A DNA stretch of 27,906 nucleotides from Reclinomonas americana ATCC 50394 (taxonomy: Eukaryota): contig PS015023.1 in the NCBI GenBank assembly GCA_048213135.1, positions 174,314-202,219 of the forward strand. Reading direction: 5' to 3'. The notes under the pieces were generated by a model, which did not search any database, was not told the DNA's origin, and saw nothing but the letters and a program-made list of their open reading frames with translations. Both the position numbers and the translations under genes were made by a program. Positions 11,023 to 27,424 of the stretch are shown here, one piece after another (position 1 is the first letter of the stretch; every line of letters begins with the position of its first letter).

Positions 11023-12995
11023 TGTGCAGGACGAGAGAGATGCAGGCAACGCAGGTGTTGCTGCAATCAGTCAGTCTTGCAGTCTTGATCTTGCAATCAA
11101 AGCTCAGGTCTCTTCATTTTCTGCGACTCGTGTGATCTGCTCCCACACTGTGTGCATCAACGCTGTCTCCACCTCTGATCTCCCTTGCATCCCCNNNNNN
11201 NNNNNNNNNNNNNNNNNNNNNNNNNNNNNNNNNNNNNNNNNNNNNNNNNNNNNNNNNNNNNNNNNNNNNNNNNNNNNNNNNNNNNNNNNNNNNNNNNNNN
11301 NNNNNNNNNNNNNNNNNNNNNNNNNNNNNNNNNNNNNNNNNNNNNNNNNNNNNNNNNNNNNNNNNNNNNNNNNNNNNNNNNNNNNNNNNNNNNNNNNNNN
11401 NNNNNNNNNNNNNNNNNNNNNNNNNNNNNNNNNNNNNNNNNNNNNNNNNNNNNNNNNNNNNNNNNNNNNNNNNNNNNNNNNNNNNNNNNNNNNNNNNNNN
11501 NNNNNNNNNNNNNNNNNNNNNNNNNNNNNNNNNNNNNNNNNNNNNNNNNNNNNNNNNNNNNNNNNNNNNNNNNNNNNNNNNNNNNNNNNNNNNNNNNNNN
11601 NNNNNNNNNNNNNNNNNNNNNNNNNNNNNNNNNNNNNNNNNNNNNNNNNNNNNNNNNNNNNNNNNNNNNNNNNNNNNNNNNNNNNNNNNNNNNNNNNNNN
11701 NNNNNNNNNNNNNNNNNNNNNNNNNNNNNNNNNNNNNNNNNNNNNNNNNNNNNNNNNNNNNNNNNNNNNNNNNNNNNNNNNNNNNNNNNNNNNNNNNNNN
11801 NNNNNNNNNNNNNNNNNNNNNNNNNNNNNNNNNNNNNNNNNNNNNNNNNNNNNNNNNNNNNNNNNNNNNNNNNNNNNNNNNNNNNNNNNNNNNNNNNNNN
11901 NNNNNNNNNNNNNNNNNNNNNNNNNNNNNNNNNNNNNNNNNNNNNNNNNNNNNNNNNNNNNNNNNNNNNNNNNNNNNNNNNNNNNNNNNNNNNNNNNNNN
12001 NNNNNNNNNNNNNNNNNNNNNNNNNNNNNNNNNNNNNNNNNNNNNNNNNNNNNNNNNNNNNNNNNNNNNNNNNNNNNNNNNNNNNNNNNNNNNNNNNNNN
12101 NNNNNNNNNNNNNNNNNNNNNNNNNNNNNNNNNNNNNACTCTCCTCATCGCCCCCTCCCACGCAGGACGAGGTCAAAATGGTCACCGAGCTGTGCGAACT
12201 GCGCGGATGCAATGGCGCCGTGTTCTTCGAGGTCAGGAAACACCAGGACTTGTATCTGTGGGTGGCAAGAACACCTGCCGGTCCCTCGGTCAAGTTCCAC
12301 GTCGCGAATGGTGTGTGTGTGTGTGTGTGCATGCCCTTTTTCTCTGTTTTCTCTTTCCGCATGTTACTCACCACACCACCGCAGTGCACACGATGGAGGA
12401 GCTGAAGATGATTGGCAACTGCCTGAAGGGATCACGATCGCTGCTGCATTTCGATGCACCGTTCGACGCCGAGGACCAGCCGCACCTGCGCGTGATGAAG
12501 GAGCTCTTTACGCACGTGTTCAGTGTGCCTCTCGGACACCCCAAGTCCAAGCCCTTTATCGATCACATGCTGGCCTTCTTCCACGTCGACAATCGCATAT
12601 GGTTCCGCAACTACCAGGTTTGTGCCCACCACCACCATCTTCTACTACTCCACCACCACGCATGCACTTGGCTGACTGGTTTCTCTTTTGCGCAGCTGGT
12701 GGAGGACACCTCTGGCAAGCGCACCACGGGCGTGGAGCTGGTGGAGGTCGGTCCGCGCTTTGTCATGACACCGATCCGCGTGCTGGCCGGCAGCTTTTCG
12801 GGCACGGTGCTGTGGGACAATCCGAACTTTGTGTCGCCGAACGTGTCGCGCGCACAGGAGCGCAAGGCGGAGCAGGCCAAGTTTGTCAACAAGATGAAGT
12901 CGAAGAAGCGCAGCCAGATCAACGACTTGCTGAAGACGCTGCCGGGCGACGTGGCCGACGACGTGTACCTCAACCTGCCCATGGACGAGGATTAG
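10371..12995 (+). CDS. BRX1: Ribosome biogenesis protein BRX1 (Brix domain)
   Basis: Exons give RYRHMLSDLVSLMPHAKKDAK, FFEVRKHQDLYLW, GPSVKFHV, HTMEELKMIGNCLKGSR, HPKSKPFIDH, IWFRNYQ, LVEVGPRF and GSFSGTVLWDNP. Intron 2 contains the assembly gap. Confidence 0.95.
11195..12137. other. Assembly gap (run of N) within a BRX1 intron
   Basis: 943 consecutive N. The BRX1 exons on either side join in frame (DSK|DEV). Confidence 0.99.
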
Positions 12996-15916: not shown

Positions 15917-16968
15917 ATGTTGCTGGTTCGGGAAAGCCACTCTCCTCCCCTCATTATCATCGCACTGAATCGCTTCACGCCAGCATCCGTGGCTGGCCAA
16001 ACTTGCTTCAGTGCCTTCACTGTCGCCGACCACTCGTGTGTTGACTTTCCTCACCGCCAACGTGGCCGCCGGCGATGTGACGAATGCAGGTCTCACACAG
16101 CACAAGCACTCTCATACACACACTCTTGTCTCTCTTTCGTTGACACAGCACACAGTCCGCGACTGGTCATTTCTTCCGGCCGAGGCTCGTCATCGCGGCT
16201 TCGAAGCCGTCTTGCAGACACATCTCTTTGCCGGCTATCGTTACCTGCATTCTTCCCTCCTTCCAACTGCACAAGCTCGATCTCACACCGCACAGCACGT
16301 GTGCTGAATGCGTTGGCGGGCATTGGACAACTCGATCTCTCGTCACCATCGTCGTCGCAGTCGCCACCCGTGCCCGCCGACGCTCTCCGGCACGATGAGG
16401 CCGACTATGGACTCATTGGAGAGGCTCTCTGTCGCACCATCTACGGCGACGAACTCTATCCGCGTCTCCGACAGCGCATCCAGTCGTTGCATCCGGTTTG
16501 CGACTCCCGCGTCGTCCCTTGTGACCGCACTTGCTCACCGTGCACCCATCGCGCAGGCCATTGATCGCTGGATCATTGATCACGCCTAGTTGCGCATCGC
16601 GGTCCTCGCGTCTGCTTCATCGCAGCTCACCTCACTTATGATCAGCGGTCGGGTCTTGTCACGCAAGGGCATGGACATTAGGGAGCGGGAGCTGTGTGCC
16701 GTGGCGGTGCTGGCCGGCCAGAATGTGGCACCACAGCTGCTGTCGCACATCACGGGCGCGCTGCGGGTCGGCAACTCGCGCGACGACGTGCGTGGCATTC
16801 TCGATCAGACGCATCTGGTGTGGGGCGAACGGGCGCAAGACGAAGCCGTTGCGTATTGCGTAGCTCCCGTCCGTCCATCTCCGTCACTCTGTCGTGGACT
16901 CACTGTGTGACCCCACACTCCAGGACGCCGTGTGGCACACCCTCGGCTCGGCACGATACGGCCTGTGA
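15917..16968 (+). CDS. Carboxymuconolactone decarboxylase (CMD)/AhpD-like protein
   Basis: Spliced EAVLQTHLFAGYPRVLNA, GEALCRTIYG, WIIDHAYGRVLSR..RERELCAVAVLA..QLLSHITGALRVG; about 6 introns; no CxxC motif. Confidence 0.8.
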
Positions 16969-17009: not shown

Positions 17010-20000
17010 TCATGCCAGCTCCAACAACAGGTCACCGGCGTGCACTCGGTCGCCCGGGGCGCAGCACACGCGTCGCACAGTGCCCGAGTGTGGTGCGGCG
17101 ACAACCACCTCCATCTTCATGGCCAGGATCACCGCCAGCGTGTCGCCCTGTGCCACACGAGCGCCCTCACGCACGCGAATGGACAACACAGCACCCGGCA
17201 CTGGCACCGGTACTGACCGCTCGTTCGCGGGATCGGCCTTCTCGCGCGGACTGCGCTGCTCGAGTTGCTGGCGATCCTTGACGTGCACGGTGCGCGACTG
17301 TCCATTCACCTCAAAGTGCAACTCGCGTTGCCCCTGGTGATCGAGGCCGCCAACCGAGCACAGCTTGACGTGCACGCGCTGTCCACGTTGCAGCTCCACT
17401 TGCAGCTCCTCGCCGATGCGCGGACCGGTGAAGAAAATGCGCGTCGGTATCCGGCTCACGTCGCCGAAATCGTGACGGAACTTGACAAAATCGTTAAACA
17501 CCTTGGGATAGAGTGCCGCAGTGAGGCAGTCGACCTCCTCCACATCCTCGCTCTCCGACGACGGGAGCGTGGAGGCCAGCATCTTCTTCAGCGCGGTAAA
17601 GTCGATGGGCGGCAGCGACGCACCCGGTCGTTCCTGCACCACCGGCAGGCCACGCGTGATGATGCTACGCAACGGCTCCGGGAAACCACCCGGCGGCTGT
17701 CCAATGTAGCCCTGGAAGTACTCAATCACCGAACTCGGGAAGATCAAGTGCTTGGCCTGCTCCACCACGTCCTCCTCTCGCAGATTGTGTTGCACCATGA
17801 AGTGTGCCAGATCGCCCACCACCTGCTCGCAACAACAATATAAATGCGTGATCACAAACATGCACATGGTGGCATTGACAGCACCTTGGAGGAGGGCGTG
17901 ACTTTGGGGATGTCACCTGCAAAAAAATGGCAAACGGTCAGGCGCGCTTGTGTCGTCTGACAAACACGGACGACGGTGACGTACCCAATATGCGATTGGC
18001 GGCCGCATAGGCCTGCTTGATCTCGGGCCACTTGGAGGCGAGACCGAGTGAGTACGCTTGGAAGTGCAGATTGCTGTACTGGCCACCGGGAATCTCGTGA
18101 TTGTACCTGCGCACACAGCGGTGCGGTGAGTGTCTCTTGCCATCACTGGCGTTGTAGCGCAACAAGTGCACGCACACATCAGCCGAGCCGCTCTTCATCG
18201 TGAGTGAGGTGGCCTCGAACGGTGCGTACAGAGCACGCGCGCCTTCCCAGTACGTTGAAATCTCCGTGGCCTCGCTCAGCGAGATCTCCGGGGCAAAGTG
18301 CGAGCCATCGAGGCCAGCAAGCTGTTTCACAGAAGCACAATAAGCAGGAGCCATACAGCACATGCTGCATGCATGTGTGCGCACCAGTGCTCCCATGCTC
18401 GGTTGCGACGTGAGACCACTCATGGAGTCGACGGCCACGTCCACCACATCGGCACCGGAGCGCGCCGCTGCCAACATTGAGGCCACTCCCAGTCCGCCCG
18501 TATCGTGCGTGTGCACATGAATTGGTACGTTCGGGTGCTGTTGCCGCAGTGCTGTGAAAAACGGAAGGCACGGTCAACCACTGTGAATACACCACATCAT
18601 ATTTCGCGACTCACCAGAAACAAGCATGCGAGCTGAGCGCGGTTTCAGCAGTCCAGCCATGTCCTTGATGCACAGCACGTGCGCACCAGAACTCATCAGC
18701 TGCTTGGCCAGATTGAGGTAGTAATCCAGCGTGTACAGGCGATGACCCGGGTGCACAACATCAGCCGTGTAGCAAATGGCCGCCTCGACCACCGCGTCCG
18801 TCTGCATTGGATCGACATGAGTTGGAGGGGACGACACACATGGTTGGTGGTGATATGCACCTTGAGCGCCGCGTCAATGCCCAGCAGCAAGTTGGGCAAG
18901 TAATTCAGCGAATCAAACACACGGAAAATGTCAATGCCGCGCTGGTGAGCGACCTCGCAAAACTCGTACACCACATTGTCGGGATACGACGTGTAGCCGA
19001 CGGCGTTGGCGCCACGCAAGAGCATCTGGAATGGAATGTTGGGTATCTGTGCGCGAGATACTCAGGTTGATTACCAGGTCTCTCATCAAGATACGAATGC
19101 GCGCGCACACCTTCTCGCGCAGCTGCGACAGTCGCTCCCACGGGCACTCGTGCAGGAAACGCATGGACGTGTCAAACGTGCCGCCACCCCACATCTCCAG
19201 ACTGTACGCATTGCTCAATGCGTGCGCCGTGTACGGAGCGATGGCCAGCATGTCAATAGTGCGCACACGTGTGGCGAGCAGCGACTGTTGTGCGTCACGC
19301 AGAGTGGTGTCGCACAGAAGCAGTGCCGAGTGCTTGCGTACGGCACGCGCGAATCCCGCTGGCCCTTCCTACTCGCACAACGACTTGCATGAGCACCAGC
19401 GCACGACTTTTCATCTCCCTACTCCGCACAGCGACGCAACTCGTTGCAGCACATCACGCCACCCGGCCGGCGGCTTCTCCTTCACTGGATCGGCGATGAA
19501 CGACGGCAACAGTGGTTCCTCCTCGCGCGGTTTGGCGAGGGCGTTGCCGAGCGGTGTGAGCGATCCATTGACGGCCACTTCGCCCAAAAAGTGCACGAGC
19601 TTGAGAGTGGACTCACGTTGCGCGAGTGCCTTGAAGAGTTCCTCGGTCGAATCCACCCACGCGGTGGAGATCTGGCCACTCAAAAACTGCCACGAGTGTC
19701 ACGAGATTTTGAGTGCAAGTTGTCGACCATCGTACTGGCATCTGCAACACTGACCGCGGGATGTTGGACGACGCGCTCCAGGAAGCACACGTTGTTGCGC
19801 AGGCCCACAATGATGAACTGCGGGGAGGAGTAAAGGGTGAGGCTCTCTCTCTCTCTCTCTCATCCTGCAGCAGTACAACACGCACCTCACGGAGTGCAAT
19901 GAGCAGCTTGCGGGAGGTCATGTGCAAGTCGGTCGAGTGCGCGGTGACGTTGCAGAGAACGGGTGCGTAGTACGGCGTGATGCGATTGCCGGCGTAGCCC

Positions 20001-21805
20001 TCAGCACGCTCGACACGCACGCCCTTGCCCTCTACGCACATCCTCATCAGTGAGACAAAAGGGGAACGAGAGAGAGAGAGAGAGAGAGAGAGAGGAGTCC
20101 ACACCTCCCACACGGAATGCCTCCAGACGGCCCGTGTCGACTGCAAAGCCGGACTCGGGATCCTCGGTGGTCACGGAGCACTGCACAGCGCAGCCAATGG
20201 TGCGCAGCTTGTCCTGCGTCAGGTCGAGCTCGGAGAGCGTGCGACCAGAGGCCAACTGGATCTGCGCTTGCACAATGTCCACCGAGGTGATTTCTTCGGT
20301 GACCTGGCTCAACCAGGCTCAGGTTAAGGAAAAACACAACCCCTGTGGATGGAGAAATACGTACCGAGTGGTCCGCCTGCAGACACGGAACGAGATCGGA
20401 GAACCAGTACTCACCCGTGGTCGACACGAGGTAGACGGCGCTGGCGGCATTGGTCAGATTGATCGACCGCGCGAAGCGAATGGCGTCGTCGGCGAGTTGT
20501 GCGTGCAGTTTCGGTGACAGGTTCGGCGCCGGTGCCACATGGAAGAGCTTCTGGTAGTTGCGCTGGACCGAGCTGTCGCGATCGAACAAGTGAACTGCAT
20601 CAATCACCACCACCTCTTCGTGAGGGCCGAGCACTCGGGCGAGCACAATGAGAAAAGAGTGCAGGCGCGAGCATCCCCACCAATCTCTCCAGCGTGGTCG
20701 CCCAGCAGCTGCACCTCAATGTGCCGCACTTGACCGAGGAAGTGCTCGACAAACACAGAGCCGTCGCCGTAGGCCGCTCGCGCCTCGTTGCGTGCACGCG
20801 CAAAGGCCTCGGACAGCTGACGACGATCGGCAGCCACACACATGCCAATGTTGCCGTAGAGAGGCTTGAGGATGACAGGATATCCGACTCTGCGCACGAG
20901 CGAGTGAATCAACAAGCTTGTCTCGCTCGCGACATTGCCGACGCACTTGTCACAATACTCTCGCGCCTGCTCAATGGTGGTGACCGCTCGCGTCGACCCG
21001 TGTACAATCGGAAGGCCGACATTCGCCGCCAGCTGACGAGCACTCATCTTGTCGCTGACCGTCTCGAGAATCTTCACCCAAGATGATGAGAACGCACGCA
21101 GACAGAGGTGAGCGCACACAAAGGAGGCACACCTTGGCACTGGGCCCAATGAAGATCAAGTTATTATCGTCGCACGCACGTGCAAAGTCGGCGCGCTCCG
21201 CCAGAAACCCTACATATGCAAACACATGGGAGATCCGACTTGTTGTGGCACTTGAGCATGACAAAGCGTACCATAGCCCGGGTGCACGGCATTGCAGCCA
21301 GCAGTGATGGCCACATCGATGAGCTCATTGATGTTGAGGTAGGCAGTGGTGGGGTTGAGGCCGCGCCCAATCAGATAGCTCTCCGCGCACTGTCACATGG
21401 AACAGTGTCAAATGAAGGAATGATCATCAGTGGACATCATCTCGTGCGCACCTGTTGTCGATGAAGGCTGCCGCTGTCCTCCTGTGAGTAGACGCCCACA
21501 GTGGGAATGTTCAGCTCCGCAGCTGCTCGGAACACTCGCGTGGCCACTTCACCACTGTCAATGAGAGAGGTGAGAAGAGACACACACAGATTGCTCTCTT
21601 CTTCTTCTTCCTTACTCACCGGTTGGCCACGAGAATCTTGGTCTGTGGTGCACCGTGTGAGCGACCTCTCAAATGTGTCAGACTCTGTGTGCGTGTGTGT
21701 CAGTGTGAACGCAACAACCGGTCTGCGCGGGAGTGGCGGGTGCGGATGATGGTGATGATGATGCGAGAAGAGACGCACATGCGCCAGGCACGATTGGCGC
21801 CACAT
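17010..21805 (-). CDS. PC: Pyruvate carboxylase-like protein (BC-CT-BCCP) with a mitochondrial-type presequence; BC domain apparently catalytically degenerate
   Basis: [103 protein letters not shown] and AMKM; about 19 introns; N-terminal [14 protein letters not shown]. Confidence 0.93.
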
Positions 21806-21903: not shown

Positions 21904-23367
21904 TTAAGGGGCCGGCTGCTCGACCACCAGCACTGGTAGGTCGAGTGGAGGGGCAGCTGGAAGAGGAGGAGGAGGTGGTGGTGGTGGTGAAGCTTCTGCG
22001 GTGGTGGTGGTGGTGGTGGTGGCAAACGTGGCGAACCACTCGCTCAGTGCCGCCTCGGTGACAACTCGATCTACAATGTACGGGTGCTGCAGGAGCTGTC
22101 GAGCCGTCTTGCGATCCTCTGGTTTGGTTTGCAGACTGAGAGGCGGGGGAGTGTCAGACGGTTATTCATGGCGGGGGAAGATGTGCAGTGGTACGCACCA
22201 ACACGTGATAAAGTCACACAGCTCCTCCGAGAAACCGTCGTCGGCGGTGAGCCGGGGCGGTGGCTTGGTGCACACACTCATGATTATTTCGTGTGCGCCG
22301 GTTCGCGGTCCGCTCGGTGGATACGGATGCTTGCCGGTGATGGACTCGAACAGGGTGATGCCCAGCGCCCAAATGTCGGTCGATGTGTCGTGCCCGCTGC
22401 CCATGATTCGCTCCGGCTGCGCCACTGGAGTGTGAGATGCACAGACAAGGGACAGCGATGCGACAGAGGGGACACACGGAACGCACCGACATGTACACCT
22501 CGGTGCCGGTGTACGTCCTGCCGCGATCGTGTGTGCCCTTCAGTTTCCGTGACACATTGAAATCGGCGAGTTTGGCCTCTCCCTTGCCTGCTCGCGAGCG
22601 AGTGAGACACACAGAGAGACAGAGAAGAACGGAAAAAGAGAGAGTGAGTATCGCAACTGTTGAGCAGAATGTTGGCGGGCTTGATGTCGCGGTGAATGTA
22701 CGACACCGGACGCGCCGTGTGCATGCTGGCCAACGCCTCCAACACCTGCGCGTCACGTGAACCGTCATTTAGGAAGAGAAGACACGATCAGAACAACGCG
22801 GAGTCGCACCTGCGCCGTGATGCACGCCATCTTGTCCTCGGGAACACGCGACACCTTCTTCTTTACAGAACTCAACGAGCCCACATCCATGTACTCCAGG
22901 AGCAGGTACACGGCCGACTCCTCGGCCCACGCGCCCTTGAACTCAATCACCCGCGGAAAGCCACTCATCTATGGAGCAGTACGGTGACTGAGTGCACGGA
23001 TTGAGGACACTGCACGACGCCGACGCACCTCTTGCAACACAAGAACCTCGCCGAGTGGCGACGACGATTCATCGGTCTCCAGATACACACGCTGTAACGC
23101 ACACACACCGTCAGTCTCCACGCGCCGCCTCCTCCACGCGATGCAAGGACCACACGTACTTTTACCGCATACTGCTCGCCAGTGACAGCATGCGTCGCCA
23201 GGTACACTGTGGAGAAGTTCCCGACGCCTGCAGAAAAACCCACCCCCCAAATCAGCCAAAGAAGCAAGTCGTCACGAACACAGCTCACCGCACCGATCTC
23301 GCGACCGAGCACAATGTCACGCTTCAGCCGTTGCCCATCGGCGAATAACCGTTCCACGGCCTCGGCC
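21904..23367 (-). CDS. MAP kinase kinase (STE7-like), 5'-incomplete
   Basis: GVGNFSTV, AVK, LEYMDVGSL, HRDIKPANILLN, KLADFN, TYTGTEVYMSPERI, DIWALG and PPPRL..FSEELCDFI; Pro-rich tail; TAA 21904-21906. The first visible exon begins at a splice acceptor and no start codon was found. Confidence 0.88.
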
Positions 23368-23735: not shown

Positions 23736-23791
23736 CATTCTTTCATGCTATGACCTTTCGAGTACCAACTATTGCCTTGTTTGACCGGCAG

Positions 23792-24390
23792 CATTGACAC
23801 GGGCACTACATACACACACCCGGACCAGCCGGCCCTGGAGGTGTTGTCACAGCTCGTCAGCCGCACCTATCTGCACGCAGCTGTGCGTGAGAAGGGTGGC
23901 GCCTATGGCAGCGGGTGCTCCCTGGGTCTGGACGGCGTGTTCTCGTTCTCTTCGTTCCGCGACCCGCAAGCCCTGGCCACTCTGCGAGTGATGGAGGACG
24001 CCGGTCGATGGGTGGCCGAGGAGGCACCACTTACCGATCGCGACCTGCAAGAGGCCAAGTTGGGCGTCTTCAAGCAGCTCGATGCGCCCGTGCCGGTGCA
24101 GCTGCGTGGCCGTGCACTGTTCTCGTTCCAGCTGACGGACGAGATGCGCTTGCGGTGAGCCTCTTTTTTTCTTTGGCTGTCGTGCATGTTGATAGACTTT
24201 CGGTATCCACTCAACATGTCTGTACAGGCGACGAAATCTGCTGTTCGAGGTGACTGCCGATGACGTGCGTCGTGTGGCGCGGTCGTATTTGTTGCCCGGT
24301 GTGATGCCTTCGGCATCCGTCATCTTTGGTACGCGAGCCATGGGCGAACAGCTGCGCGCCGATCCTGCTTGGAAGGTGCACTCGTTTTGA
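23792..24390 (+). CDS. PITRM1: Presequence protease PreP/Cym1 (peptidase M16C), C-terminal fragment only
   Basis: YTHPD..LEVLSQL...YLHAAVREKGGAYG, FSSFRDP, EAKLGVFKQLDAP and LFEVTADDVRRVARSYL; one intron at about 24155-24227; TGA 24388-24390. Most of the ~1000 aa family protein is absent. Confidence 0.85.
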
Positions 24391-24449
24391 TGATCATCGT
24401 AGACGTCGTTGACAGTGTGAGAGTAATGCATATTAGACTGCATTGTGCA

Positions 24450-24469
24450 CTATTTCTCTCCACTTCCGC

Positions 24470-24503
<34 letters not shown>

Positions 24504-27424
24504 GGCCTCGCTCTCATTCCTCTTCTCCACCTCCGGGAAATCCAGCAGGCGCGCTCCGTTCTCCGCCCGCCACTCCTGAATCGCCTGTCGCAGCGCCAAA
24601 TTCGGTGTAACTTGATCCGACGGCATGGTCTCCAGCGTCATGGGGTCCGATCGCGCATGGTCACGCAACCACAGTTCGAGAGCCGCCCGCTCGTACGTGT
24701 GGCCGAGTGACGAGATGACCGGGTCGACCATGATCTGCTGCGTGATTGGACACACCCACAGCCACTGCGGCGGCGGCTGTGGATCGCGCGGCAGCGCGTC
24801 GTTCACACGCTGCACGCTAGCGCGCACAGACAACAACTCCTCTCTCAACGACGGCGAGTCGCTGAGTACCTCGGCGAAGCGCGTGAGCATGCGACGCATT
24901 TGCTTGCGCGTGCGAGCCACTCGTCTTTGCGGCGTGGACATGACTGTTGATACGACCATTGACGAGCGGTCGGCGACAGGAGGCTCTTCCGAACCACTGG
25001 CCACTGGTGGTGCGACGGGTGCGTTGAACGCTTCGCCATTGCCAGCGTGCACACCACTCGCCGCGGCCTCGATTCCCGCTCCCTGGTCCTCCTCCTCCTC
25101 CTCCTCCACTTCGTCCTCCTCTTCCTCCTCATCGTCTTCGTCCAGATCAAATGGTACAGCCACGGAGGAGGGCTCATCCGGCTCCGCAAGTGAAGGTGGA
25201 ACCGGTGAGACGGAGATTGGAGGCTGGTGCTGGCCACCGCCAATGCCGAGCTCCGTCAAGTTCAGCAGCGGCACCGGCACCGGAGAGCCAACGGCGCTCG
25301 GCGAAGCGACTGGTTCGGCCATCTGCAGTGGCGGAGGATTCTCTGCACCGACACCATGCAGCGGTTGCAAGCGTTGCCGGAAGGCTGCAGCCGCGTGGAG
25401 TGAGTAGTCGGTCGAGCGACGCTTCCTCTACGCAGGCAAATGGGGGAAGAAATCACCTTCACGGCCTCCGTGCTCATTTGCCAGCGCCTCAGAATCATGC
25501 CATAGCGGCGGCGACTCTGTGTTGCACGGATAATCTGGTGGTGAGCAAGAAGGAAGGAGCAACAAAAGGGTGCAGCTGCGTACCAGACTGCCTAAGTGGC
25601 TCAGGTGCGGCAGCCGAGGGCTCGACTGCGGAAAACGTCGACGAGCGCGGCGAGCGTGGTGAGCGCGGCTTGAAGATGCCGTCGAACATGTTGGGAGGTC
25701 GCGGCGAGTGACCAGCTGCCACCTCGTTGGCTCGCACCACGGCCTCGGCAGCGGATATGCCGCGCTCGTCGTCCGACAATATCTCACCGCCAGCGCTCTC
25801 CTCGTCACTGAAATATGCCTCCTCGAACGTGAATGGCGCATCAGCTGGTGCGTTTGGGCGCGCGCGCGAATATGGTAAGCGACAAAGGAGGAGAGAAGAC
25901 GTGCACGTAGGAAACGCAACGAAGGGTGACTTCCCAAAAGTCGTTCAAGGCGCTCGCATTGGTGGCATCGGCCAGTGAGCAGCCGCCAAACAAAACTGCT
26001 TTACGAGGCTCGATCATCACCATTGTGTGGCCCCAACGCGCGCACGGCGATGAGTGTGTGTCCTCCAGCGGAGAATAGTCGGTGAGGTCGTACCACACCA
26101 GGGAAGCTGGGTGGCGATTTTGCGGTGAGTAATCCTTGGGGCGGGAGAGGGGAGATGATCTTGCACGCAACCCAAATCCAGCTCGTAGCAGCAGCGTTTT
26201 TGAGAGGACGGATTCGCCCGATCGACGCCGCCCCACATCAGGAAGCGGCGGTCGGATTCGATGATCACCGCGGCCGCACCACCAATCACGGGCGGAGTGA
26301 TGCCGGTGCAAACAAGACGCGACCACACCCACGTTTCTGTGCAGGAGGAGGAATGAGGACTGGAAACAGCAGAATGGGCGACGGTGCGTCACACACGACA
26401 CGCAACTCGTATTCAACACATAAGTGTCACACAAATCCGGTCGACCGCCGACCATCAGCATGCGATTCTTGCTGATCATCCTCGCAATGTGGAATGCACG
26501 AGGACCGGGGACGTCGCCCGAGAATTGCACACGACGGCACGTCATGGTGTCTGCGCACACGGTGAGCGAGCGAGCTCCCACATTTTCAGTCTGACGGAAC
26601 GCAACTCAAGTCAAACACAAATCCATCCTCAAACGCAATGCCGGTTCCGTCAGCGCCACCATAAACAAACACGCGTCCACGACCAATCTGCACCGCAGAG
26701 TGGCCATCGCGCGCACTCGGCATCTCGCCCGAAAAATGTACACCGGACCATATCGGCGGGCGATTGGACACTGTGAGCGTGGTAAAGCGTGAACACATAC
26801 ACACACACCCGGAATGCGAACTGCATGTGCACACTCGCACCTTCGCCCACCACCGAGTCCAAAATAAAAGCCTCGCGCGTCTGCCGCCCCGGCATGCGCA
26901 CACCTCCAAACATGAAAGCCTTGCGTGTGGGATCACCGGCCGACGACACCACGGGAACCATGGCCGCTCCATCACGGCCCGACGGCACAATGCCCGTGCA
27001 CTCGCACCGTCGCACAGTGTTTCGCTCTGGTGAGCGCACAGTGTGTAAGAGAGAGAGAGAGAAGTGCCCTTGGCCACAGACGACTGACACGACTACACAC
27101 ACACCGACGTTGAACACAAAAGTGTCATTCATCCACCGCTGCCGATCCCACCCGCCAAACAACACCATCTCGGTGGCCGACAGGCGGAACGCACAGTGAT
27201 TCCACCGCATTGGCGGCATCGGCACTCCGCGCATGTCCTCGAAAGGGTCATCGGGAGGTGCCTATTAGTATGAAGGAGAAGAATGGAAACCGTCAGCATG
27301 TTTGCAGAATGCAGGATCAGGGAGATGGACACGGGACGAGACCTCGGCATCCCACTTCAGATCGCTGGCCAGTGTGCCCACTTCCTGCGCGATCAGCGAC
27401 ACGGTTTCTCGGTGGTACGGAGAG
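24450..27424 (-). CDS. Kelch-repeat / U-box protein (putative E3 ubiquitin ligase), 5' end not defined
   Basis: Kelch repeats (PMRWNH..VLFGG, PSGRDG..FMFGG, PSARDGH..FVYGG, PGPRAFH..LMVGG, LMWGG, PCARWGH..VLFGG) splice in frame through a Pro/acidic linker into a U-box (PQWLWVCPITQQIMVDPVISSLGHTYERAALELWL..SDPMT..PNLALRQAIQEW). Confidence 0.82.

Follow-up and report, generated by a model that had tools for sequence, protein, structure and literature searches.

The active sites of biotin carboxylases are among the most invariant in metabolism. In pyruvate carboxylase (PC), the biotin carboxylase (BC) step is considered rate-limiting (PMC9581989). Engineered hybrids of BC-dead PC subunits and subunits dead in the carboxyltransferase (CT) and carrier regain activity through several carrier paths (PMC5895798), and natural alpha2beta4 PCs hold twice as many CT/carrier units as BC units (PMC5059739). 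For the jakobid Andalucia, the mitochondrial proteome table contains a single PC, which is canonical over the 400 residues shown (PMC7050145). Here we describe a PC gene in a 27,906-nt stretch of Reclinomonas americana ATCC 50394 (contig PS015023.1, positions 174,314 to 202,219; G000:C15:174314-202219 in our assembly set; hereafter the window). The gene codes for a full-length single-chain PC of ~1178 aa in 20 exons on the minus strand, from an inferred start at 21805 to 17010, and its BC domain is predicted to be catalytically dead.

Reference PCs for comparison were 83 of 390 retrieved proteins, those of at least 1000 aa with a matching CT region; the set is biased, being made of search hits, many of them actinobacterial and some animal or fungal. 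In this alignment, a check suggested in the original prediction for this locus, the window PC has lost 42 of 134 near-invariant (>=95%) columns in the BC domain, two of them by deletion, compared to 2/113 in the CT domain, 3/7 and 1/7 in the two allosteric segments and 0/11 in the biotin carrier. Counting substitutions only, the difference is 40/132 in BC versus 2/113 in CT (Fisher p 2.5e-10). At a 90% threshold the window PC deviates at 49 BC columns, while the 83 references have a mean of 2.8 and a maximum of 13. A canonical PC paralog in the same genome loses 4 of the 132 invariant BC columns.

The BC substitutions quoted in the original prediction were all located in minus-strand exons. 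Direct alignment with human PC reads E276H, E311V, E324D, N326V, R328C and E332D without gaps, which rules out an alignment artefact. The Gly-rich loop is altered, as had been claimed, and it also carries a two-residue deletion relative to human PC that had been overlooked. Rescue by RNA editing was ruled out as well, since two base changes are needed for 8 of the 14 listed changes in the BC domain and acetyl-CoA site, and six bases are missing altogether.

We took residue roles from PMC9581989 and matched its L. lactis numbering to the window PC through motifs and their spacing, without a printed alignment. By these roles, the window PC has lost the Mg ligands E274 (to Val) and E286 (to Asp), the T-loop that holds the polyphosphate, the ribose contact N234 (to Tyr), the bicarbonate residues R290 (to Cys) and E294 (to Asp), and R341 (to Ser), which stabilises deprotonated biotin, together with its salt-bridge partner E239 (to His). 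The Asp of the YDS motif, described as a ligand contact in PMC11077971, is also replaced. The catalytic set expected of a PC (T-loop, two Mg-binding Glu, bicarbonate Arg/Glu and biotin Arg) is missing, and we agree with the original prediction that the protein very probably cannot carboxylate biotin or fix bicarbonate alone.

The region first assigned to the gene, 19900-21642, does lie inside it, but covers only most of the BC domain of a gene that runs from 21805 to 17010. Nineteen exons extend from 21642 to the stop at 17010-17012, separated by 18 GT-AG introns of 57-86 nt, and give 1149 codons with no internal stops. Exon 2, which starts at 21642, has no in-frame ATG, so an upstream first exon is required. 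Three candidate start ATGs are present (21874, 21805 and 21780); our model uses 21805 with a donor at 21718, and the resulting 29-aa leader is a possible mitochondrial presequence. Residues of the window PC are numbered from 21642; the leader model adds 29. All domains have a GC3 of 0.72-0.76. The domain order, BC-PT-CT-PT-BCCP, and a chain of about 1150-1180 aa are those of a single-chain PC. The features are as follows.

21719..21805, minus strand: inferred exon 1, encoding a leader of 29 aa that has four Arg but lacks acidic residues, followed by an inferred 76-nt intron (21718-21643).
19657..21642, minus strand: BC (ATP-grasp) domain, residues 1-441, exon 2 to the start of exon 12; full length, predicted to be catalytically dead.
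21384..21454, minus strand: N-terminal half of the acetyl-CoA site, KADE changed to QCAE, spanning intron 3.
20841..20867, minus strand: phosphate-binding T-loop, remodelled to KPLYGNIGM and two residues short of the canonical length, with its Lys kept.
20365..20594, minus strand: exon with C226S, H232Y, E237H, E272V, E285D, N287V, R289C and E293D (model numbers; the human equivalents of E237, E272, E285, N287, R289 and E293 are E276, E311, E324, N326, R328 and E332).
20175..20177, minus strand: QCRVT Arg changed to Ser; Arg in 83/83 references.
19964..19966, minus strand: YDS Asp changed to Ala; Asp in 83/83 references.
19806..19814, minus strand: Arg pair for the acetyl-CoA 3'-phosphate, FRIRG changed to FIIVG.
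19363..19656, minus strand: first allosteric (PT) segment, with R457S at 19609-19611 (Arg in 83/83 references).
17505..19362, minus strand: CT domain, residues 516-985, with H540Q at 19288-19290 and A576G at 19180-19182.
17280..17504, minus strand: second allosteric segment.
17010..17279, minus strand: biotin carrier domain, with the AMKME lysine at 17115-17117 and the stop at 17010-17012.

The CT domain had been called intact, and this holds for its RD, IKDMAG, HTH and VTPSSK motifs and for all listed metal, substrate and biotin residues, including R537, D538, Q541, R610, K707, H735, H737, T875 and S878 (metal and substrate, window numbers; roles from PMC9581989, section 7). It does not hold for two neighbouring invariant positions, where RDAH reads RDAQ (H540Q, human H574Q; His in 83/83 references) and WGGAT reads WGGGT (A576G, human A610G; Ala in all 79 references with a residue there). 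Human A610 sits in the CT site, and A610T is described as preventing biotin binding. Gly is smaller, and blocking of biotin is not expected, though CT activity may be altered. The carrier is intact as predicted, with the biotinyl lysine present in its AMKM motif. Both CT and carrier are predicted to still work.

Two aspects of the BC half were missed in the original prediction: the adenine pocket is retained and the acetyl-CoA site is partly lost. The residues that bind adenine, ribose and one phosphate (K116, K157, E199, H207 and Q231 in L. lactis; PMC9581989) are all kept, and the adenine and ribose contacts (window K115, K157, E197, H205 and Q229) are present in an environmental relative, P0032, as well. 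The BC dimer-interface residues named R19, E23 and K442 in PMC5059739 are kept as R17, E21 and K403, and the domain differs in length by 2 residues from two of three references checked and by 6 from the third. Judged from sequence comparison, the BC domain is still under structural constraint, with 92/132 invariant BC columns equal to the paralog versus 56/185 variable columns (p 4e-12). The old active site holds new residues at Y232, H237, S226, S270, P158 and N162. At the acetyl-CoA site, going by the residues given for the mycobacterial enzyme (bioRxiv 10.1101/2025.11.11.687647), K42Q, A43C, D44A, R412I, R414V and R457S are losses, while R40, S46, R359 and the VNGQxR segment remain. This site is typical of PC without being universal; it is incomplete here, and the window PC is probably blind to acetyl-CoA.

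A search of the genome for a second, canonical PC, also proposed in the original prediction, was successful. An intron-containing PC with all BC motifs canonical lies on C393, with a near-identical copy on C1227/C1228. Identity between the window PC and this paralog is 49.7% in BC, 69.0% in CT and 45.5% in the carrier; the allosteric segments fall at 47-51%. Of the 18 internal intron positions, 10 are common to both (8, 43, 296, 362, 411, 432, 662, 724, 828 and 869). The two are sisters in trees of the non-BC part (SH-aLRT 97, 30 rows) and of CT (0.92, 49 rows). This sister relation and the common introns mark a duplication inside a eukaryote lineage and not a transfer. The canonical paralog also carries an Arg-rich leader. 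The genome assembly does contain bacterial contigs (C1, C2, C14 and C3235), whose genes are intronless (AccC, CarB, a PCC/MCC operon and, on C3235, a PC). No second copy or haplotype of the window gene was found in the assembly, where what we take from their translations to be PCC, MCC and ACC-like genes are present in two copies each. The paralog's BC domain reads MGFK in both copies (L023 on C1228 and L024 on C393), where most BCs have MGDK. Its middle CT exons on C393 (L024:1680-2453) lie on the strand opposite to the rest of the gene, probably a scaffolding artefact, and similar inversions occur at the PCC-like (C60), MCC-like (C68) and CT (C170) loci.

Relatives with the same substitutions, the object of another suggested search, were found as two environmental BC fragments. 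Of the 1.84 billion representatives searched, the 150 that matched the dead exon best include two with the dead signature: P0014 (ENA, on a 614-nt contig) and P0032 (Logan, on a 1165-nt contig). These are singletons that look like intron read-throughs and end before E286–E294 (L. lactis numbers). P0032 is the top match for the loop exon (103 bits vs 80) and reads KPLYGNEGM with the identical deletion. The fragments are 49-59% identical to the window PC; exonic identity is 53.5% between the window and P0032, 57.6% between the window and P0014, and 60% between the two fragments. Where the window PC lost an invariant residue, the same new residue occurs at 7/16 positions in P0032 and 7/9 in P0014; the E272V position is Ala in P0032. 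The window PC and the two fragments group as one clade (0.999) with a long stem (0.45); its sister is the paralog (0.78). Going by these common residues, the rebuilt BC site is conserved beyond the window gene.

Only these two fragments bear the signature among 399 stored proteins, and, apart from P0032, three further protein searches returned no protein of the dead type, and none of full length. Pattern scans gave 7 matches in the DNA of metagenome contigs, all by chance, 5 in prokaryote genomes, none of them a PC, and 46 in viral contigs, none of which were confirmed; ESM Atlas gave generic ATP-grasp clusters only. Ten proteins without a Gly-loop match were rejected as dead-type, as some are frameshifted or chimeric fragments and the others vary slightly in the loop but have canonical motifs downstream. 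The KPLYGNxGM pattern is also found in an ATP-grasp-like loop of prokaryotic proteins (L074, L075 and L077) that we take to be of the glutathione synthetase type, a likeness that is probably convergence on a general ATP-grasp loop.

Intact CT and carrier domains imply a source or sink for carboxyl groups. As the most likely role for the window PC we tentatively propose an acetyl-CoA-blind partner subunit that dampens mixed tetramers with the canonical PC. The lineage's own PC would have been duplicated and the BC domain of one copy turned into a pseudo-domain that retains its fold, BC-BC dimer surface and adenine/ribose pocket, makes no carboxyphosphate and carboxylates no biotin. The two proteins would co-assemble, and the carrier and CT of the window protein would accept carboxyl groups loaded at the partner's BC sites. 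Since BC sets the overall rate and both BC monomers contribute to the acetyl-CoA site, a dead subunit would lower the flux from pyruvate to oxaloacetate and uncouple it from acetyl-CoA, acting as a tuning subunit and not as a booster. We favour mixed tetramers because the fold and dimer surface are kept, a partner is present, engineered hybrids work and CT-rich natural holoenzymes exist.

Several points weigh against this proposal. The xBC/xCTxBCCP hybrid of R. etli PC (RePC) turns over at ~10-12.5 per min, compared to 150-1200 for wild type (PMC5895798), and with a rate-limiting BC such low hybrid activity is the reason we expect damping and loss of acetyl-CoA control. Identity to the paralog reaches only 50% in BC and 46% in the carrier, with 47-51% for the allosteric segments, so co-assembly is not a given. 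The fixed residues Y232, H237, S226, S270, P158 and N162 seem to exceed the needs of a passive scaffold, two invariant CT-site positions are changed, and P0014 and P0032 are BC fragments in which no CT domain or partner gene is visible.

The modest interface identity and the fixed new active-site residues favour instead a stand-alone, soluble, biotin-dependent oxaloacetate decarboxylase, which we regard as possible but less likely than the partner subunit. Here the CT domain would transfer CO2 from oxaloacetate onto biotin; its release would take place in the rebuilt BC pocket or in solvent, possibly gated by an adenine nucleotide that the retained pocket binds. The intact CT and carrier fit this, as do the derived pocket residues common to three lineages and the adenine/ribose contacts kept in the window PC and P0032. 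Delta-BC RePC shows an oxamate-induced reverse reaction faster than that of wild type (PMC5895798), but the published reverse activity requires oxamate as acceptor. To lose the acetyl-CoA site would suit an enzyme deaf to an oxaloacetate-making signal, and A610G and H574Q could mean a changed direction or substrate. On the other hand, no natural step of CO2 release is known to us, an OadB-type membrane beta subunit (PF03977) gave 0 matches in a possibly incomplete assembly, and a futile cycle with the canonical PC would arise if both share one compartment. Moreover, five pocket residues kept at 54% overall identity are weak evidence of nucleotide binding. An unlikely, more specific form of this idea is that the former BC pocket, with its clade-wide new His, Tyr and Ser and its adenine site, is a nucleotide-gated site of carboxybiotin decarboxylation, making the protein a mitochondrial, energy-sensing oxaloacetate valve that opposes the acetyl-CoA-activated PC. 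If true, such a backward-running PC would be a new kind of soluble eukaryotic enzyme.

It is improbable that the rebuilt BC site is still chemically active, in slow carboxylation or another ATP-grasp reaction with Asp replacing Glu at two positions. E285D and E293D are conservative, the nucleotide-side residues are kept, and the new loop starts like other ATP-grasp loops (at least 3 of 5 prokaryotic pattern hits fall in an ATP-grasp-like loop), but the window loop is two residues shorter than those, and the site has lost both arginines (bicarbonate and biotin), the Mg ligand E272 (Val here, Ala in P0032), N287 and the Gly loop. We give no greater weight to a non-catalytic or moonlighting protein (a scaffold, biotin sink or assembly factor) for which neither half-reaction would be of much importance. 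Yeast PC, which moonlights, and the plant BADC pseudo-subunits offer analogies, the CT branch exceeds the paralog's in length by a factor of 1.6-1.7 and two invariant CT positions are changed; against this, the CT domain keeps 111/113 of its invariant columns and every metal, substrate and Thr/Ser residue.

Less probable again is a role as the arm of an ATP-independent transcarboxylase, passing carboxyl groups to and from an acyl-CoA CT (the propionyl-CoA carboxylase beta subunit, for example). A transcarboxylase role was raised in the original prediction, and we found no support for it. The CT and carrier resemble 5S and 1.3S, and the CT exon matches 5S at E 1e-11, but CT is far closer to PC (E 2e-34) and a retained BC is not needed. 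Moreover, the 28 PF01039 matches, with loci judged by contig count, showed no extra acyl-CoA CT gene of the 12S kind, the eukaryote-type ones being two single-CT genes and ACC. A decaying duplicate or assembly artefact, for which a single copy speaks where other carboxylases appear twice, is very improbable: as the original prediction held, it does not look like a pseudogene, having no stops, frameshifts, broken splice sites or uniform drift across 1149 codons despite 38% divergence from the paralog outside BC, with many key changes needing two base changes and the same derived residues recurring in two independent records.

Neighbouring genes in the window (CMD-family, kinase, PreP fragment, U-box and Kelch) gave no functional link to PC. 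The locus is very tightly packed: a spliced CMD-family (carboxymuconolactone decarboxylase-like) gene at 16308-16910 (plus strand) converges on the PC stop ~100 nt away, and a spliced protein kinase gene at 21904-23350 (minus strand) has its stop ~100 nt before the inferred PC start. Of a presequence protease (PreP, M16), just the C-terminal portion is in the window, at 23754-24393 (plus strand), after a long GT repeat and possibly at an assembly join. A gene for a protein with Kelch repeats and a U-box follows at 24450-27400 (minus strand), and a run of 943 N is found at 11195-12137.

The window PC gives a native system in which to ask whether PC paralogs form mixed tetramers with the carrier paths known in vitro, and whether a PC scaffold can become a decarboxylase or a nucleotide sensor. 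Genes of this kind are annotated as ordinary PC and would be miscounted as anaplerotic capacity. A prior description of a natural BC-dead PC was not found in literature listings and abstract openings, a coverage outside which most subscription papers lie. BC-dead PC subunits were met there only as laboratory mutants, while the window gene appears to be a natural and conserved one. A degenerate PC-type BC is also seen in a PC fragment from Gnathostoma spinigerum (MFH4983606.1; P0143), with 24/95 invariant columns changed, the bicarbonate Arg replaced by Glu and the RHIE His by Val. P0143 has only 2/32 derived residues in common with the window PC, keeps the equivalents of E274, E286, E294, R341 and D382 and groups, with weak support, with nematode PCs; it appears to have degenerated independently of the window clade and may mark a second BC-impaired PC lineage.

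Human PC (PDB 7WTA) and the genome's own canonical PC are like the window PC in domain order and length, CT active site, AMKME lysine and BC dimer residues, but the window PC is without their BC catalytic residues and Gly loop, has half an acetyl-CoA site and carries H574Q and A610G in CT. Oxaloacetate decarboxylase alpha (PDB 2NX9, E 2.5e-14) and transcarboxylase 5S (PDB 1RQB, E 1e-11) have homologous CT domains that work without BC; they are much more distant than PC and need OadB/OadG or 12S partners, which were not found in the possibly incomplete assembly. The Na+-pumping oxaloacetate decarboxylase is a CT-carrier chain without BC, unlike the window PC with its full BC domain. The beta subunit of the two-subunit alpha2beta4 PC (PMC5059739; PDB 5KS8) has CT and carrier dependent on a separate BC and is insensitive to acetyl-CoA; it is bacterial and has no BC domain, whereas the window gene keeps a whole pseudo-BC. 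The engineered xBC and delta-BC PCs of R. etli and A. nidulans (PMC5895798) are BC-dead with working CT and carrier and show that hybrid rescue and the reverse half-reaction are possible; they are laboratory mutants, and the window gene is a natural, conserved paralog. In its likely working the window gene resembles a PC beta subunit or an xBC subunit, while its BC domain sets it apart from PC proper.

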